Notes under the pieces: model-generated
What the model was told of the DNA's origin: nothing
Databases searched by the model: none
What the model saw: the letters and a program-made list of their open reading frames with translations, nothing else
Made by a program: the position numbers and the translations under genes
Assembly: GCA_963701075.1 (NCBI GenBank)
Contig: OY969559.1
Coordinates: 1,504,001-1,568,000, forward strand
Source: an uncultured Nitrososphaerota archaeon
GTDB lineage: Archaea; Thermoproteota; Nitrososphaeria; Nitrososphaerales; Nitrosopumilaceae
DNA: 64,000 bases
Direction: 5' to 3'
Shown here: piece by piece, positions 6,652 through 14,831 of the stretch
Numbering within the stretch: position 1 is the first letter of the stretch
How the letters are laid out: every line of letters begins with the position of its first letter

Positions 6652-6909
6652 ATGTCCACAAAAACAATCGCACTAATATGTGCCGCTTTTGCAGGTGGCG
6701 TGATCGCAATAGGAATTGCGATGTCAGCAGGATCTGGATGGGAACCAGCAGGTCAGTATACCGGAATAAGCAATGCCGCGCATACGGTCAATAATTCATC
6801 GAGCTGCTATGCGTTTCAGACAGGATGCAATAGTACAAGCTATGGTTCAACAACTACCAGTTCAGACTATAGTGGCGCAGCTTTAAGCGGCTCCTATGGC
6901 GGACCATAG
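6652..6909 (+). CDS. small secreted or membrane-anchored Ser/Gly/Tyr-rich protein
   Basis: N-terminal hydrophobic helix; TTTAAA box upstream; T-run after stop. Confidence 0.75.
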   Translation: MSTKTIALICAAFAGGVIAIGIAMSAGSGWEPAGQYTGISNAAHTVNNSSSCYAFQTGCNSTSYGSTTTSSDYSGAALSGSYGGP

Positions 6910-7089
6910 ATTTAAAATCTATTATTTTTTTCATTTCATAAAGAAGTACAGCATTAATTTTTTCATCATGTAGGTTTGGGAATTATGAGAGAAAAGACTC
7001 TCTTTTGGCAAGAATATGTTTTTGGCTTTTGAAATTAAAATCAGTTAATGGCAAATCTTAAGTCATTACAGAATAATGTGATAAAAGAA

Positions 7090-7227: not shown

Positions 7228-7394
7228 TGAAATTAGAATCCTAAAGCTTTACGACAATAAGAAATCATTCCATATTGTCAAACCGTTTGGTGAAAAGAAT
7301 AGAAAAATTAAACTTTAATTTCTACTGCAAAACCAAATCTGAGAATCAATCAAATTGTTATATACTAAGATTGTATGATATTATCCGAAAACAT

Positions 7395-7956: not shown

Positions 7957-8943
7957 TTGAAAAAAACTGCATATCTTCTGATAGCATTAATTTTTGTATC
8001 AAGTATGACAATAAGTTCGTCAACTAACGCGGTTGCACAACAAACACCTACAAATAATTTTAACACAATTAATTATCCTAGCGCCACTAATACATTTGCT
8101 CTTGGAATAAACAATGCTGGTCAGATAGTTGGGTATTATTATAACAGTCAAGAGAACTACCACGGCTTTCTACTCTCATCTGGTAACTATACCTCAATTA
8201 ATTACCCCGGTGCCAGTAGTACGACTGTTCTTGGAATTAACAATGCTGGTCAGATAGTTGGATATTATTATGATAATTCAGGGCACCTCCATGGCTTTCT
8301 ACTATCGTCTGGCAACTATACCTCAATTGATTACCCAGGTGAAAATAGTACATCGGCTTTTGGAATTAACAATGCGGGTCAGATAGTTGGAAATTATATT
8401 GATAGTTCAGAACATTTCCATGGCTTTCTACTCGCGTCTGGCAACTATACCTCAATTGATTACCCCGGTGAAAATAGTACCGCTCCTTATGGAATTAACA
8501 ATGCGGGTCAGATAGTTGGAAATTATATTGATAGTGTGGGACACTACCACGGCTTTCTACTCGCGTCTGGCAACTATACCCCAATTGATTATCCCGGTGA
8601 AAATAGTACCGCTCCTTATGGAATTAACAATGCTGGTCAGATAGTTGGATATTATTATAACAATCTAGAGAATAACCACGGCTTTCTACTCTTGTCTGGC
8701 AACTATACCTCAATTGATTACCCAGGTGCGAATAGTACAGCTGCTTTTGGAATTAATAATGCCGGTCAGATAGTTGGAAGTTATTACGATGATTCAGGAC
8801 ACTACCACGGCTTTCTACTCTCGTCTGGTGAGACTATACAAACTACTCCTGAATTTGGCCCTGTTGCCCCAATCATACTTGGCATTTCAATTCTGTCAAT
8901 AATTATTTTATCGGTCAGAACTAGATTCTTACACAGATCCTAG
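7957..8943 (+). CDS. secreted HAF-like repeat beta-propeller protein with PEFG-CTERM anchor
   Basis: Signal peptide, six GINNAGQIVG...HGFLL repeats, PEFG motif plus TM and basic tail. Confidence 0.9.
   Translation: MKKTAYLLIALIFVSSMTISSSTNAVAQQTPTNNFNTINYPSATNTFALGINNAGQIVGYYYNSQENYHGFLLSSGNYTSINYPGASSTTVLGINNAGQIVGYYYDNSGHLHGFLLSSGNYTSIDYPGENSTSAFGINNAGQIVGNYIDSSEHFHGFLLASGNYTSIDYPGENSTAPYGINNAGQIVGNYIDSVGHYHGFLLASGNYTPIDYPGENSTAPYGINNAGQIVGYYYNNLENNHGFLLLSGNYTSIDYPGANSTAAFGINNAGQIVGSYYDDSGHYHGFLLSSGETIQTTPEFGPVAPIILGISILSIIILSVRTRFLHRS
8068..8830 (+). repeat. six tandem 129-bp (43-aa) coding repeats
   Basis: CA(C/T)GGCTTTCTA recurs at 8161, 8290, 8419 and onward with 129-nt period. Confidence 0.9.
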
Positions 8944-9117: not shown

Positions 9118-9471
9118 ATGCAAGGCTCAAGTGCACTAGATAATTACGATTTAAAAAGAGCACATCAAGCTCTAAAAATGCTGCTTATTGATAGAAGTAA
9201 TGAATTTCGCCTTTTTGCTCGAGGAATTGGGTATCCGACTAACACAAAAGACTGGGAATTAATAGTCCTGAATTTTTGTCTTGATTATATAGAATGTTTC
9301 CATACGTGGACTGCCGATGATCCGCCAGACCATCACCATATCCACAAGTGCATGACACAGATGAGACAGATGGCTAGAGGAAAATCAACCATGACTGAAG
9401 TCACACATCTTCAGAATACCGCATATCTAATTGCAGAGGATTTTAAAGCAATTTACAAGAGAATAGAATAG
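9118..9471 (+). CDS. hypothetical protein
   Basis: ORF track 117 aa; TTAAAA box upstream. Confidence 0.8.
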   Translation: MQGSSALDNYDLKRAHQALKMLLIDRSNEFRLFARGIGYPTNTKDWELIVLNFCLDYIECFHTWTADDPPDHHHIHKCMTQMRQMARGKSTMTEVTHLQNTAYLIAEDFKAIYKRIE

Positions 9472-9474
9472 TAG

Positions 9475-9525
9475 AACCCTTTTAGAAATTCAACGTTGTA
9501 ATGATATGTTTTCTTTTTAGAGCAA
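9475..9525 (-). pseudogene. cas1: casposase cas1 5' stub (unit 3)
   Basis: Reverse complement TTG-CTCTAAAAAGAAAACATATCATTACAACGTTGAATTTCTAAAAGGGTTC (...HYNVEFLKGF) aligns with the stub starting at 12065. Confidence 0.6.
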
Positions 9526-9538
9526 GATTTACTCTTTT

Positions 9539-9721
9539 TTATCTAGTGAGATAGAAACAATTCCATTTCATATGAGGAATAGATTGCATACTAGGCTGCG
9601 CACAATGTAGGATGTAATGCGCTGGCATATGGGGCGTTACAAGTAAATGTACTGTAGCAATTGTGATTCCAATTCCAACTAGTACTGAAATTATTGTTAT
9701 TGCAATAACTGATTTATTCAT
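9539..9721 (-). CDS. single-TM small protein (cargo of unit 3)
   Basis: ORF track; N-terminal TM; starts 20 nt from the repeat-borne TATA box. Confidence 0.7.
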   Translation of the reverse strand: MNKSVIAITIISVLVGIGITIATVHLLVTPHMPAHYILHCAQPSMQSIPHMKWNCFYLTR

Positions 9722-9726
9722 AATAT

Positions 9727-9850
9727 AATTACGTCAGTATTGATCTTAAACTATCTTTAAATCATAACGTGTCTATTACGTGAGTTGAGAACTTTTGTTC
9801 GTAAAGTTGGGGTTTTTATTTTTGCTTGCTGTCTACAAAAAGACAGCCCC
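9727..9850 (-). repeat. casposon-end/promoter repeat (unit 3) with terminal GGGG
   Basis: Reverse complement begins GGGGCTGTCTTTTTGTAGACAGCAAGCAAAAATAAAAACCCC; degenerate direct copy of 12538-12656. Confidence 0.7.
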
Positions 9851-9893
9851 ATCAGGCCTAGAAATTTCCGTATGACTTGCAGTCACGTTGTGG

Positions 9894-10124
9894 TTAATCT
9901 CCTTTTTTTCCTCTGAGCAGTTCTGACATGTCACCTAAAAGGTAAATGAATCCTATTGCAAACATTGTACCTGAAATCATCAGTAATGCAAAACCTAGAA
10001 AATCAACTTGAGAGTAATTTTCAATATTGGCGCCATTTAGATAGTTCCATGATTCGTAAAGCCCAACTATTGATACCGTGGTCAGAATAATTTCAAACAG
10101 CATTGTTTTTCCTGTCATGGTCAA
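9894..10124 (-). CDS. two-TM small membrane protein
   Basis: ORF track; two hydrophobic segments. Confidence 0.7.
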   Translation of the reverse strand: MTMTGKTMLFEIILTTVSIVGLYESWNYLNGANIENYSQVDFLGFALLMISGTMFAIGFIYLLGDMSELLRGKKGD

Positions 10125-10167
10125 AATATTCCTCTTTCTTTTTCTTCCAAGTCCATAATCTGTTCTT

Positions 10168-10350
10168 CTACTGACTTATATTGACATTCTCGTATGACAT
10201 ATTTTTGCCATACCATTCTTCGATCTCAGGTTCTTTGAATGAGTCGGTGGTATTTTTGAGAACAATGTTTGAATCTTTTACGTTTATTGAAAAACCGTAG
10301 CCCTTTAGGAATTTTATATTGTAATAATTTCGTTTTTCTATCTGTGTCAT
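10168..10350 (-). pseudogene. cas1: casposase cas1 N-terminal fragment (unit 2)
   Basis: MTQIEKRNYYNIKFLKGYGFSINVKDSNIVLKNTTDSFKEPEIEEWYGKNMSYE resembles the N-terminus of thaumarchaeal casposon Cas1 as recalled; truncated at 60 aa. Confidence 0.75.
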
Positions 10351-10358
10351 AAATAAAA

Positions 10359-10760
10359 TTATTCCAACAATTTGCCGGTGACGGCACCAACAAAATTAAT
10401 TTGACTACCATGTTCGCTACTTATTGAAAAATAACATTCCCAAGTGACTTCCCAGACATACTCGTTATTCTCGTGATTCTTAAATGGAGAGGCAATAGCC
10501 AAAGACATATCCTTCATAGTTCTTTCATCTACGGCAAACAGAGTATCGTTTTTTACATGAAGTAAGTGTATGCCTACATTACGTAATTCATTAGGACTAT
10601 TGTCTGCACAAAGAGATCTCTGCATGGCAACGTCAAACGCTTTCTGTTTGGATAAAAAATGTGGATTTCCAAGATAGTCAAAGAGAATCAACAGTCCGCT
10701 GATTATGCCGATTGAAAAAATAACAATTGTTGCAACAGTAATTGGTTTTTTTCTCATCAC
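10359..10760 (-). CDS. membrane-anchored PepSY-like small protein (cargo of unit 2)
   Basis: N-terminal TM; LSKQKAFDVA...YVWEVTW...FVGAVTGKLL is a PepSY-like pattern. Confidence 0.75.
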   Translation of the reverse strand: MMRKKPITVATIVIFSIGIISGLLILFDYLGNPHFLSKQKAFDVAMQRSLCADNSPNELRNVGIHLLHVKNDTLFAVDERTMKDMSLAIASPFKNHENNEYVWEVTWECYFSISSEHGSQINFVGAVTGKLLE

Positions 10761-10764
10761 ATGA

Positions 10765-10803
10765 CATTACTTTCGTAATGATTTAACCACTTTCCAACAA
10801 ATC
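10765..10803 (-). repeat. partial casposon-end promoter repeat (unit 2)
   Basis: CATTACTTTCGTAATGATTTAACCACTTTCCAACAAATC versus TATTACTTTTATCATGATCTTAAATCATTTCCAACAAATC at 12538. Confidence 0.7.
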
Positions 10804-10960
10804 CCACGACCATAATGACTCTAGGTATGACGCCTTTTCATGATGTCAGCGGCGGGGATTGCATTTTTGTAGACAAAGTAAAAATGTTTTACCCCTGTTT
10901 TACTCGTAGAAATATGTTATTGTCGCAAAACTTTAGAAGATTAGAAAATAATCAAATTCA

Positions 10961-11884
10961 ATGAATGTCATAATAGTGGTTGGAATCTGTCTGTTGATGG
11001 CATTCTCTTGTTCCAATCTTGTTTTTGCACAAAAAGTTCTCACAAATCCCAATATTACAGCCACGACTGACAAATCATCCTACATCTTTGGTGATACAAT
11101 TGTAATTTCTGGCACTGTTAAAACTGTTCTACAGGGAAATATTATGACCATCCAAATTTTAGATCCCTATAGTAATTTAATTCAGACAGCACAGGGTAGC
11201 GTTGCTCAAGATGGCTCTTATGCAGACGCTGTGGAGATAGCCGGCACTGGGTGGAAATCAAGTGGTGTTTATACAGTTCTAGTTCAATATGGTTCTGAAG
11301 TTCAAACCCAAACAACTTTTGCATTTACGGCAACAACGGCTCCGATCAATGATACATTCCAAGTACAAATTCCAAATAATAGTCAGATCTTTAATGTGCC
11401 ATATACAATATTCGGAGGATCAGTGACGAACATGTCTGTTAATGCCTTGAATCCTTCTCTGACTGTATCCATACTACCAGTTAATTACGGCACAATTACA
11501 CTTTCGCTCCCACGGTCTTTGCTTGATGCAAAGACAAGTAATGGTACGGACGAACCGTTTACCATCTTAATTGATGGTATACAAATTATACCACAAAAAG
11601 AACAAGTGACTTCAAGTGATAGAACTTTGTCAATACAGTTCCTGCGAGGAGATAAAAATATCCAAATTATTGGTACCAGTGTGACACCTCAAAATAATTC
11701 TACTATTAACACGCCAAGCACAAATTTGACCACAAGTCAACAACCATCCGCACAAGTCACTAACATGTCAAAACCTATTTCGGCAGTACCTGAATTTCCT
11801 AATGGAATAATCCCCTTTATAGCTGCATTAATCGTCATGGTTGTACTTACAAGAACTACGTTTAGACAAATAATTAGGACATGA
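10961..11884 (+). CDS. secreted surface protein with PEF-CTERM anchor
   Basis: Signal peptide; TDKSSYIFGDTIVISG; LPRSLLDAK; VPEFP plus TM. Confidence 0.9.
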   Translation: MNVIIVVGICLLMAFSCSNLVFAQKVLTNPNITATTDKSSYIFGDTIVISGTVKTVLQGNIMTIQILDPYSNLIQTAQGSVAQDGSYADAVEIAGTGWKSSGVYTVLVQYGSEVQTQTTFAFTATTAPINDTFQVQIPNNSQIFNVPYTIFGGSVTNMSVNALNPSLTVSILPVNYGTITLSLPRSLLDAKTSNGTDEPFTILIDGIQIIPQKEQVTSSDRTLSIQFLRGDKNIQIIGTSVTPQNNSTINTPSTNLTTSQQPSAQVTNMSKPISAVPEFPNGIIPFIAALIVMVVLTRTTFRQIIRT

Positions 11885-11918
11885 TTCTAAAGTTATGAAC
11901 GAGTCAATGCCGATCTCT

Positions 11919-12065
11919 TTAAATTATTTCGAGAAAACTGAAGTGTGAATTGAATGGGTCAGATGTATTTTTGAGAAATATTTTAGAGTTTTTTACGTTT
12001 ATTGAAAAGCCGTAGCCTTTTAGGAATTTTACGTTGTAGTGATTTTGTTTCCCTTTAAGAGTCAA
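11919..12065 (-). pseudogene. cas1: casposase cas1 N-terminal fragment (unit 1)
   Basis: TTG start overlaps the upstream TGA: MTLKGKQNHYNVKFLKGYGFSINVKNSKIFLKNTSDPFNSHFSFLEII*; close to 10168..10350. Confidence 0.75.
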
Positions 12066-12532
12066 TTTGGATGTAATACGATTGAAACGAATCCATAAGT
12101 TAGAAGACCCATGCCGAGAATTTCAAAAAATACTACTATGATTATCCATTTTGCTTGTTTGAATTCGTCTTCCGTCACTCTCTTTCTGCCAATAGAAATG
12201 TAATACACAAACCAAATCATGTCTATGCAAACTATCATTCCACCAAGCGAATATTTGCCAAGGTCACTAACAGCTACTAATCGAAAAGATGCGATAGTAG
12301 GCACAATTCCAAGAATCAAAACTTCCATGGATTCGATTAGATAATGATTTACCTTTGGGATACGTCTTACAAAAATCAAAAATAAACCAAAGACAGAGAA
12401 GCCAATGACAGTAACAAGATCTTTCCATTCTTGATCTAGTTTCAAATATGCGTCAAAAACAGCACGTAATAGAATGAATAATGCCGTAACCAGCAATATG
12501 GTAATAACTATGGAACGTGGCTTGAGTTTCAC
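12062..12532 (-). CDS. multi-TM membrane protein (cargo of unit 1)
   Basis: ORF track; about five hydrophobic helices. Confidence 0.8.
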   Translation of the reverse strand: MKLKPRSIVITILLVTALFILLRAVFDAYLKLDQEWKDLVTVIGFSVFGLFLIFVRRIPKVNHYLIESMEVLILGIVPTIASFRLVAVSDLGKYSLGGMIVCIDMIWFVYYISIGRKRVTEDEFKQAKWIIIVVFFEILGMGLLTYGFVSIVLHPN

Positions 12533-12638
12533 AGAGTTATTACTTTTATCATGATCTTAAATCATTTCCAACAAATCATACTTTCGTTATTACCTAGTTA
12601 GCTTCAATTTCCACGCCTAAACGGGGGGTTTACTATTT

Positions 12639-14831
12639 TTACTCTTTATCTACAAACTCATCTGCTGTCGGAGGTTCTGGACTGAGACCCTTTCTCTTTC
12701 TAAGATCAGCCACGATGGTTGACAGGATAGAGTTTGGAACTGGCGTCCATGCCTTAAAGTGAGTGTTCCACATTGCTTTTCCTGCAGTCTGCCCACGCAT
12801 TACCTCAGACAAGTCAAATGTTTCAGATGCAGGAATCTCTCCAGTGATAATATTTACAACACCTTTTTGTTCCATGTTTAGAACCTTGCCCCTCTTTCCT
12901 GATATGACACCTGCTACGTTGCCAATGAGTTCTTGCGGAATCCTGACCTCAATTCCAAGTGTTGGCTCTAGCAGTACTGGTTGAGCAAGCAACATTGCAC
13001 CCATGCATGCACGCCTTGATGCAGGTCCTAGTTGTGACAGACCTCGGTGTGCCGGGTCTTCGTGTGGTACAAAATGATGGAATGTAAACTTGCATCCCCT
13101 TACCTGTTCTCGAGTAAGTGGGCCTTCCTTCATGGTATCATCAAATCCTGAAAGTATAGAATCGGTTGATTCCTGAACAAACTGGACACCTTTTGTGCCG
13201 TCAACCATAACATTTCCTCTGGGATCAAACCTCATCACACGTTTTGCGTCGTCTCCGTCCCAGCCGACTTCTTTCAATATCTTTTGTACTTCCTTCTTGT
13301 CTTTGTATTCATTTAGTGTGCCGTTTCTTATCATCTCAGCTACCTTCTCGTCGAGCGGTTCTACTTTCAGAAATATCTTGTTGTGTCTGTTAGGTGATTT
13401 TGCCATGATAGGTCCTGCAGAACCACGAATTGTCTCCCTATAATTTATCAAAGGTTGCGAAGTGACAATATCCACTTTGGCATCTGCAATCAATGCTGTT
13501 GCAATCTCAAGGTGAAGCACACCCATGCCGGCAATCACAGTCTCTCCGCTTTCCTCGTTTATCTTTACGACCAAGTTGGGGTCTTCAATTGTAATTCTGT
13601 TTAGTGCCTCGACAAGTTTTGGCAAGTCTTTTGGATGTTTTGGTTCTACTGCAATTTGCACAACTGGTTCGGACACATACTGGATTCCCTCAAATGTATG
13701 AACGCCTGCTACTGTAGATATTGTCTGGCCTGCCCTTGCATATTCCAATCCCAAAAGTGCCGGAATGTTTCCTGCTGCAAGTTCTCCTACCATCTCTCGC
13801 TGGTTGCCCATGAAAAAGTTGACAGACTGGATTCTTCCCTCTCGTTTTGTATCAATGATATGAATCCTGTCACCATCTTTTATCTTGCCAGAAAATAATC
13901 TCCCTATTGCCACAGGACCAGCGGCCGGGTCAACTGTCATGTTTACAATCATCATTATGGCAGGGCCATTATCGTCACAACTGAGCAGTGCCTTTCCAAT
14001 GTCAGAGTCAAGATCACCTTTCCAAATCTTTGGAATTCTATACCTTTGTGCAACGTCAGGCGGTGGATGATGTTTTACTACCATTCCAAGAACTGCATCA
14101 TATAGCGGAGCCTTTTCTGCAAGATCCTTGACACTTCCGCCCTCAGAATAGGCAGCAAAAATATCTTTGAATGATATTCCTTTTTTCTTCATCACGTCGG
14201 CATTAAATCCCCACTTGTCCTTGGCAGAACCAAATGAGACGCTACCGTCCTGAATGCTTACTTTCCACTTTTCCTTGTATTCAGGTTCTGCATAAATGTC
14301 AATTAGCCTGTTAAAGTTGGTCACAATCTCAAGCAGCCATTCCTGCATCTTGTCAGGTGTTAATCTTAATTCCTTTATGAGACGGTCAATCTTGTTGATA
14401 TAAAGTACTGGTCGCACCCTCTCTTCTAGCGCTTGGCGGGTTACTGTCTCGGTCTGGGTCATGATACCCTCTACAGAGTCAGATACCACAACTGCCCCAT
14501 CAATTGCCCTAAGGCTTCTAGTCACACGGCCAGTAAAGTCAATGTGACCTGGAGTATCAATCATGTTGATGACATATTCTTGATCATCTTTTTCATAGAG
14601 TAGAGTAACATTTGCCTGCACGATGGTCATCTGCCTGTCTTGCTCCAATTTCATCGAGTCAAGTGCAAGCGCCTGTCCTGCCACAGATGGACTGATGATA
14701 CCGCTTGATGCAAGAAGACTATCACTCATTGTAGTTTTGCCGTGATCTACATGAGCTATCACACCAAAATTTCTGATGTGGCTCTTGTCTCCAATAATTT
14801 TGAGAATCTGCTCAGTCGCCTTAAATTTCAT
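12639..14831 (-). CDS. fusA: translation elongation factor aEF-2
   Basis: AHVDHGKTT, DTPGH, NKID GTPase motifs; HEDPAHRG diphthamide loop; 730 aa. Confidence 0.99.
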   Translation of the reverse strand: MKFKATEQILKIIGDKSHIRNFGVIAHVDHGKTTMSDSLLASSGIISPSVAGQALALDSMKLEQDRQMTIVQANVTLLYEKDDQEYVINMIDTPGHIDFTGRVTRSLRAIDGAVVVSDSVEGIMTQTETVTRQALEERVRPVLYINKIDRLIKELRLTPDKMQEWLLEIVTNFNRLIDIYAEPEYKEKWKVSIQDGSVSFGSAKDKWGFNADVMKKKGISFKDIFAAYSEGGSVKDLAEKAPLYDAVLGMVVKHHPPPDVAQRYRIPKIWKGDLDSDIGKALLSCDDNGPAIMMIVNMTVDPAAGPVAIGRLFSGKIKDGDRIHIIDTKREGRIQSVNFFMGNQREMVGELAAGNIPALLGLEYARAGQTISTVAGVHTFEGIQYVSEPVVQIAVEPKHPKDLPKLVEALNRITIEDPNLVVKINEESGETVIAGMGVLHLEIATALIADAKVDIVTSQPLINYRETIRGSAGPIMAKSPNRHNKIFLKVEPLDEKVAEMIRNGTLNEYKDKKEVQKILKEVGWDGDDAKRVMRFDPRGNVMVDGTKGVQFVQESTDSILSGFDDTMKEGPLTREQVRGCKFTFHHFVPHEDPAHRGLSQLGPASRRACMGAMLLAQPVLLEPTLGIEVRIPQELIGNVAGVISGKRGKVLNMEQKGVVNIITGEIPASETFDLSEVMRGQTAGKAMWNTHFKAWTPVPNSILSTIVADLRKRKGLSPEPPTADEFVDKE

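Follow-up and report, generated by a model that had tools for sequence, protein, structure and literature searches.

What lies behind the archaeal elongation factor 2 (aEF-2) gene of an uncultured Nitrososphaerota archaeon of the family Nitrosopumilaceae raises the question of whether one small mobile element landed there whole or several larger ones landed and decayed in place. The sequence analysed, called the window below, is a 64,000 nt stretch of contig OY969559.1 (assembly GCA_963701075.1, positions 1,504,001 to 1,568,000), and an earlier reading of its letters, the original prediction, had proposed that positions 10854–12668 are a lone non-autonomous mini-casposon of 1.8 kb whose right terminal inverted repeat (TIR) encodes the last codons of aEF-2. 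Excerpts of published work describe aEF-2 as the target of thaumarchaeal family 1 casposons (PMC4046053, PMC6563490), and aEF-2 and purD as family 1 targets, with tandem insertion at ef-2 (PMC6563490). We find that in 9456–12653 at least three family 1 casposons have very probably been stacked, and have decayed, at the canonical landing site at the 3' end of aEF-2; each relic has an end repeat, a small membrane-protein open reading frame (ORF) and a 5' stub of cas1, and the relics are separated by copies of the target (Table 1). The predicted element, here unit 1 (10880–12640), does not stand alone; it is one of these tandem relics, with ends of two types and chimeric content. In what follows G numbers denote genomes (G000 is the present one), C numbers contigs and L numbers loci.

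The inverted repeat from which the mini-casposon had been deduced is real. Local alignment of 12580–12700 with the reverse complement of 10820–10950 returns exactly the pair that had been named, 12607–12656 and 10866–10913, with 37 of 50 columns identical, and over 80 nt the observed score of the two arms is reached by none of 300 shuffles. When the 61-mer 12600–12660 is used as query, this pair is the top non-self match on either strand of the window, its score of 34 comparing with a 99th percentile of 24 over 1276 background chunks; in the whole 1.9-Mb genome the same match ranks third, and the two matches ranked above it are casposon end repeats elsewhere.

The nature of the two arms is given by the ends of intact casposons in the same genus, which fall into two classes. 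Class I end repeats are 81 and 87 nt long and 95% identical (intact elements at the purD 3' end, G188, G058), and are built of an A run, a C run at about positions 13–18 and a GATTTGTTGGAA box at the inner end; they do not begin with a G run, as had been assumed. Class II ends, of about 55 nt, are those of the intact aEF-2 element of G010 and have only their first ~34 nt in common with class I. An nhmmer profile made from 20 class I ends of relatives, with the window excluded, matches 12640–12566 (E 2.7e-17 in the window, 8.1e-16 genome-wide), 10868–10791 and 9820–9759, the left ends of units 1, 2 and 3, respectively (E values of the latter two in Table 1), and gives weak matches at 9837–9880 (E 0.37) and 10880–10913 (E 7.9). 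A second profile, made from 13 class II ends of relatives, picks out 10880–10936 (E 4.6e-9 against the whole genome). Because of these matches the right arm of the predicted element is assigned to class I and the left arm to class II. Both arms are therefore recognisable as casposon ends, and unit 1 has the terminal inverted repeats of a family 1 casposon; its two ends differ in type and are alike over about 34 nt only.

The aEF-2 ORF is intact (730 aa) and the end repeat begins at the second base of its stop codon, an insertion at the 3' end without disruption of the gene. Sequenced integration products of the N. koreensis casposase, in the published excerpts, have a duplicated 13 bp, ATTGATAAAGAGT, behind a TTT leader (PMC8464041). 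The last four aEF-2 codons and the T of the stop in the window, GTAGATAAAGAGT (copy A), are identical to that word in 11 of 13 letters, and the preceding TTT is the same. The aEF-2 codons that had been taken for part of the TIR are this 13-bp target (12641–12653); the end repeat, which starts at 12640, contributes only the last two A's of the stop codon. A target-site duplication (TSD), which the original prediction could not find, is present as well, in the form of copies at 9824–9836 (copy B) and 10869–10879 (copy C). Copy B is direct relative to aEF-2, and copy C is flipped and 2 nt short, which is why the FVDKE codons fall within the inverted match: canonical target copies are direct and therefore would add nothing to it. 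Unit 1 by itself has no direct TSD, as copy A measures 13 nt whereas copy C is inverted and has only 11, and simple insertion of unit 1 would not yield such a copy. Units 1 and 2 taken as a pair are flanked canonically, since copies A and B are direct. The same N. koreensis excerpts report a 5'-TTCTA-3' motif at the TIR 3' end, whose position relative to the present ends could not be placed (PMC8464041). We note that copy B is nearer to the VDSE-type aEF-2 ends of more distant members of the genus than to the genome's own VDKE end, which hints at an old or imported unit. No tRNA gene was found in the window.

The target copies within the stack lie in the centres of two similar words. A GGGG start at 10854 and a direct copy ending at 9850 had been remarked on earlier; both are present (the latter is 9809–9850, score 27), and both words are 42-nt near-palindromes. 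The pattern GGGG-N5-12-TTTTT-N11-13-AAAAA-N5-12-CCCC occurs at 9809 and 10854 only in the whole genome and not at all in 10 shuffled genomes. These words are junctions, each made of a right end, a target copy and a left end, and the intact casposon in G010 shows the same junction form; the GGGG at 10854 is part of the adjoining unit's end and is not the start of unit 1. The junction at 10854–10895 is spanned unchanged by Logan contigs from three runs of a single study, X1 (which may be the source sample), X3 and X4, so the arrangement is not peculiar to the assembly; that at 9809–9850 is spanned by contigs of X1 and X3. Contigs of X5, from a second study, end at 10819, leave 10873–11235 uncovered and show loose ends at 9430 and 9470. 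At the junctions these contigs gave neither joints nor an alternative orientation, and rare variants are dropped from them.

Among the genes between the ends are casposon genes cut short. The 60-aa stub at 10168–10350 matches the N-termini of ORFs of ~330–390 aa in many relatives, and its full-length relative in G268 is a Cas1 according to Pfam (E 2.8e-48) and NCBIfam; all three stubs (~57, ~40 and ~19 codons) align with casposase N-termini. Matches to the cas1 stub occur in 108 of 301 family genomes, many of them in open frames of <100 aa that span the first 25–45 residues only. Autonomous family 1 elements have a full-length Cas1-type casposase that has no helix-turn-helix (HTH) domain, together with a PolB; the units here have cas1 stubs, and PolB is represented by a 21-codon C-terminal relic at 11886–11951, other than which four casposon PolB queries found no PolB-like sequence in the genome. 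The expectation that unit 1 has neither integrase nor polymerase of its own was correct in both respects. The only Cas1 of the genome adjoins Cas6b, Cas4 and an array of 37-nt clustered regularly interspaced short palindromic repeats (CRISPR); this CRISPR-Cas locus (G000:C1:1911908–1915765, L001) has at least six such repeats and lies near a contig end. No casposase or casposon PolB was found to be encoded in the genome, and the units therefore cannot move by themselves now.

Table 1. Features of the stacked casposon relics and their target gene, listed from aEF-2 outward (strand relative to the window)
Feature	Position	Strand	Basis or remark
aEF-2 gene, casposon target gene	12639..14831	-	Pfam GTP_EFTU, EFG_IV, EFG_C, EFG_III and others
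Target copy A (GTAGATAAAGAGT)	12641..12653	-	last four aEF-2 codons and T of stop
Class I end repeat, unit 1 left end	12566..12640	-	nhmmer; collinear with left end of G268 element
ORF, 156 aa, five hydrophobic stretches	12062..12532	-	no Pfam/NCBIfam family match
cas1 5' stub 2, ~first 40 casposase codons	11919..12065	-	alignment to casposase N-termini
Casposon PolB relic, last 21 codons and stop	11886..11951	+	tblastn
ORF, 307 aa, putative secreted protein, PEF-type C-terminal tail	10961..11884	+	no Pfam/NCBIfam match
Class II end repeat, unit 1 right end (left arm of predicted element)	10880..10936	+	nhmmer E 4.6e-9, whole genome
Target copy C (GTAGACAAAGT)	10869..10879	+	11 nt, inverted relative to aEF-2; unchanged in X1, X3 and X4 contigs
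Class I end repeat, unit 2 left end	10791..10868	-	nhmmer E 1.9e-6 in window, 5.7e-5 in genome
ORF, 133 aa, one N-terminal hydrophobic stretch	10359..10760	-	no Pfam/NCBIfam match
cas1 5' stub 1, ~first 57 codons, in 60-aa ORF	10168..10350	-	72% identical to N-terminus of 356-aa Cas1 of G268
ORF, 76 aa, one hydrophobic stretch	9894..10124	-	hydrophobicity; DNA matches in relatives
Right end of unit 2	9837..9880	+	nhmmer E 0.37; weak beyond first 14 nt; terminus forms palindromic junction
Target copy B (GTAGACAGCAAGC)	9824..9836	-	direct orientation relative to aEF-2
End repeat, unit 3 left end	9759..9823	-	nhmmer E 0.0073 in window
ORF, 60 aa, one hydrophobic stretch	9539..9721	-	homologues downstream of aEF-2 in L045 and L049
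cas1 stub 3, ~19 recognisable codons, no start codon	9456..9533	-	alignment to casposase N-termini

The gene content that had been reported for unit 1, two ORFs and a cas1 stub, was found as described (10961–11884 on the + strand; 12062–12532 and 11919–12065 on the - strand), and to it the PolB relic is added. Unit 1 is a patchwork of three parts, the first a class I end with the 156-aa ORF and the cas1 stub, the second the PolB relic, and the third the PEF-tailed ORF with the class II end. The 156-aa ORF stands where intact elements have the small gene in front of cas1 (compared with G268, G010 and G212). The PolB relic has 20 of 32 residues identical to residues 564–595 of the 595-residue PolB of the G010 purD-site casposon (E 5e-6). 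The 307-aa ORF has one hydrophobic stretch at each end and a tail of PEF, a hydrophobic stretch and basic residues, recognised by eye only; of the 62 other genus genomes, at least 16 contain DNA homologous to it. It and the PolB relic both run antisense to the direction of aEF-2.

The left end of unit 3 aligns with that of unit 1 at a score that none of 300 shuffles reaches, and the interior of unit 2 is shared with relatives: 9889–10245, the 76-aa ORF together with the tail of the cas1 stub, matches G121 at 85%, and 9891–10192 and 9891–10190 match G169 and G206, respectively, at 82–83%. In 300 family genomes unit 2 and its flanks (9800–10900) found piecewise matches only, and the small ORFs and cas1 stubs of the window gave no Pfam or NCBIfam family above cut-off. 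A 26-nt inverted repeat (9153–9178 and 9514–9539, 85%) brackets a 117-aa ORF (9118–9471). Further out, 7957–8943 encodes a 328-aa protein in which HAF repeats occur six times and the tail resembles PEFG-CTERM (22.3 bits, the cut-off being 25); its DNA contains 129-nt tandem units.

Intact relatives of the stacked elements stand at the same site elsewhere. In G268 the syntenic aEF-2 gene is followed by the terminal sequence, a small membrane-protein ORF and cas1, and 12640 to 11919 of the window is collinear with it. G010 has an intact Cas1-plus-PolB element at aEF-2 with perfect 13-bp target copies (GTCGACAGCGAGT), and at its right junction the right end is followed by a 13-bp target copy, another left end and then a cas1 stub. 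We compared 31 aEF-2 loci (30 and L036), two of which have no recognisable gene end, so that the stop codon was placed in 29, one of them the window. (Counts in which G228, G258, G206 and G077 are included draw in part on unpublished genomes, and no claim is made on those alone.) An end-repeat-like sequence directly follows the stop in all 28 genus relatives, of class I in 16 and of class II in 12 (two of these 12 doubtful), and no empty site was seen. Such constancy would fit a different explanation, that the repeats are not mobile DNA at all and are a native terminator or 3' region of aEF-2 spread by local duplication, since the sequence stands directly after the stop at every locus of the genus examined. 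The same sequence, however, forms both ends of intact Cas1-plus-PolB elements, including those at purD, far from aEF-2, and here a cas1 stub follows each copy. Among five genomes of other genera that have no cas1 stubs, four have unrelated sequence after the aEF-2 stop with no profile match, and the fifth has a 13-nt resemblance only. Because the sequence is lacking in those four, and because of the purD-site elements, we take it to be casposon-derived, and a native aEF-2 tail is highly improbable.

From this anatomy and the published biochemistry the formation of the stack can be pictured as follows. A casposase would recognise GTAGATAAAGAGT with TTT before it, cut both its ends and join the casposon ends, and repair would then duplicate the 13 bp. 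Repeated use of the same site would give a chain of target copy, element, target copy, element, and at its inner junctions the right end of one element would face the next left end across a target copy, which is the 42-nt near-palindrome. Internal deletions and recombination would have removed most of each element and spared the end repeats, the small membrane-protein ORF and a cas1 start of 20–57 codons; unit 1 would have kept the last 21 PolB codons as well. Copy C may have been flipped by a minute inversion in the hairpin that two abutting end repeats form, the target copy being its loop. Minute inversions at hairpins are known from chloroplast DNA, and by that analogy an inversion confined to the centre of the junction would be the simplest reading of the flip.

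The age of the arrangement can be judged from G121, the closest relative examined (about 85–89% identity in the flanks). There aEF-2 is followed first by a target copy and a class I end with a 213-aa ORF behind it, next by a PolB relic in antisense and a 16-nt remnant of a right end, and then by an 11-nt direct target copy (GTAGACAGAGT), a further class I end and a 264-aa ORF; the tail of a cas1 stub comes after these, and last the 76-aa ORF, which joins directly to window position 9471, 9472–9888 being absent. Since they are shared with G121, the joint between the stub and the 76-aa ORF and the order of PolB relic and 76-aa ORF predate the split of the two lineages; the 11-nt target copy probably predates it too, and the flip of that copy is specific to the lineage of the window. 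Another flipped copy is found in G286 (L077, G286:C8, 5284–6190), where two end-target-end junctions 760 bp apart, around a 175-aa ORF, have target copies in opposite orientations. We also note that two contigs of G121, C37 and C14 (L088/L089), both end in the aEF-2 3' end and a class I end and then diverge, which reflects either a break of the assembly at the repeat or a sample that contains two variants.

The flip would be explained in another way by one large inversion between the outer inverted ends (12566–12640 and 9837–9880), before which all three target copies were direct. Turning 9881–12565 around on paper does produce a canonical chain with every target copy direct and a target between right end and left end at all junctions, and 10892–11799 is inverted relative to G212 and G294, in both of which the PEF-tailed ORF has the same orientation as aEF-2; 6727–6930 is likewise inverted relative to G212. 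G121, however, keeps the PolB relic near aEF-2 and the 76-aa ORF distal, in the present order and orientation, and yet has a direct 11-nt copy, and between the outer repeats little likeness is left today (their score is reached by 23 of 300 shuffles). As the order in G121 contradicts it, the large inversion was dropped as first choice and seems decidedly unlikely. Inversion of 10869–11894 only (target copy, class II end and PEF-tailed ORF) is not preferred either, as it leaves two junctions without ends; that block has the same internal order in G294, G303 and G315.

The remaining competitor of the stack is the mini-casposon itself, that is, 10880–12640 cut out and inserted whole at aEF-2 by a casposase acting in trans. 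Both ends of unit 1 match real casposon ends, and in the published excerpts artificial mini-casposons bearing 20-bp ends are integrated by the N. koreensis casposase, as are many substrates between 7 nt and about 4000 bp in length (PMC8464041). A possible natural counterpart occurs in G303, in which the PEF-tailed ORF lies between two class II ends in a 1.06-kb unit that is 92% identical to window 10872–11894 and stands in another genomic context (L094, G303:C121, 1452–2526). In G315 a pseudo aEF-2 end, a class II end and the PEF-tailed ORF are on a contig other than that of aEF-2. The far target copy of unit 1, however, is inverted and 2 nt short, whereas casposase integration yields direct copies; its ends are alike over about 34 nt only; no second copy was found in the genome; and none of 62 genus genomes has the whole unit, all matches being piecewise. 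The junctions are also old, as the joint of stub and 76-aa ORF in unit 2 is common to G121 at 85% identity. As to the G303 unit, its target-like word is on one side only, its flanks map 23 kb apart in G000, it adjoins the 3' relic of a transposase-like ORF and the assembly is fragmented; the one-sided word, the adjoining relic and the fragmentation mean that the relocation need not have been made by a casposase, and the unit is suggestive only as evidence of movement.

Miniature inverted-repeat transposable elements (MITEs) are non-autonomous derivatives of insertion sequence (IS) elements, and the original prediction had likened unit 1 to them and supposed that it could once be moved in trans. 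The likeness holds in that the ends match those of autonomous partners in other genomes of the genus and surround non-transposase content. Unit 1 differs from MITEs in being single-copy, larger than typical, without a direct target duplication and with two end types, and the signs of movement, several copies or a clean presence and absence with target duplication, were not seen. Insertion of unit 1 as a whole is thus improbable, and its movement in trans, possible in principle, is equally so.

The stack of decayed casposons, which we prefer, has points against it as well. Unit 1 is collinear with no single intact element inspected; its PolB relic, though of the purD-site type, runs antisense to the cas1 stub, and its two ends belong to different classes. 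Simple internal deletion alone would not account for this mismatch with any intact element. The match at the right end of unit 2 is weak (E 0.37), and the score of that end with its left partner is reached in 62 of 300 shuffles. The flip of the 11-nt copy is explained by analogy only, and no reads with both orientations of copy C were seen in the contigs, which drop rare variants. On the far side of the array, synteny with G313 and G228 resumes only near 7240.

Casposon ends also occur elsewhere in the genome. A class II end (E 4.9e-6) at G000:C1:584590–584647 has its first letter on the second base of the stop codon that closes a GMP synthase gene (guaA; identified by Pfam GATase plus GMP_synt_C), which would make the GMP synthase 3' end a third protein-gene landing site besides aEF-2 and purD. 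At G000:C1:1648588–1648668 the best class II end of the genome (E 1.2e-11) stands behind a detached pseudo aEF-2 end (…GAGTTCATTGATAAAGAGC); the target word there is of the N. koreensis type, unlike the genome's own. Similar detached units of ACGAGTTT, target and end are found in G315, L112, L113 and L114. Partial class I fragments (E 1.2e-5 and 0.041) and a class II fragment (E 2.1e-5) lie at G000:C1:196500–197500, 1691434–1691473 and 1141753–1141807.

The stack can be set beside known systems. The family 1 ef-2 casposons compared were NitAR1-C1, NitAR2-C1, NitNF5-C1/C2 and the ef-2 element of Ca. Nitrosotalea devanaterra, as given in excerpts of their descriptions (PMC4046053, PMC6563490, PMC8464041). 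Like these, the window units use the same target gene and the same 13-bp target position behind a TTT leader, have end repeats built alike, and have cas1 beside one end, behind a small ORF. The A run, C run and a GTATGATTTGTTGG box also follow an N. koreensis-type target word in genomes of three other genera; that word was found in just five genomes, and a fourth locus of this type, ended by a contig edge, shows the A run only. Unlike family 1 elements, the window units are without complete cas1 and without PolB and measure 1.0–1.8 kb against about 8–14 kb, position 1 of the target is G, not A, and one target copy is inverted. Tandem arrays that share TSDs are described, again in excerpts, for Methanosarcina spp. 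(PMC4779613) and for NitNF5-C1/C2 (PMC6563490); they show the same reuse of the target, target copies as spacers and some inactivated copies, whereas in the window all of the at least three copies are gutted and the chain is rearranged. The solo-TIRs of Methanosarcina mazei (excerpts of PMC4779613) are likewise casposon ends left after loss of the element, and the present genome has similar lone ends, one at the guaA stop and others in two or three places; unlike solo-TIRs, the window units keep both ends and some genes.

The locus illustrates a known pattern well, its one oddity being the flipped target copy. The excerpts of the literature already contain the aEF-2 target (PMC4046053, PMC6563490), tandem use of a site (PMC4779613, PMC6563490), and inactivated copies and solo ends (PMC4779613); as regards natural non-autonomous or mini-casposons, only artificial mini-casposons, remnants and solo ends were found in them. 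A bolder proposal, which we hold to be doubtful, is that natural mini-casposons do exist and are moved in trans by co-resident or incoming casposases, the G303 PEF unit, whose counterpart is half of unit 1, being an example, and that repeated landing at one 13-bp site together with shrinkage builds chains of near-palindromic 42-nt junctions with short inserts. The ends, target and junctions of the locus are concrete substrates for casposase assays. The CRISPR adaptation machinery is believed to have arisen from casposons, and the path from casposon ends and target copies to repeat arrays has been argued, in the excerpts consulted, mostly from the Methanosarcina solo ends (PMC4779613). To this the present locus adds a family 1 chain of at least three gutted units, in each of which ends and target copies can be recognised, the occurrence of two end-repeat types within one genus, and a flipped target copy here and in G286. 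If chains of mini-casposons are indeed built in this way, the proposed path by which casposon ends and target copies became the repeat-spacer arrays of CRISPR would have a living intermediate in them.

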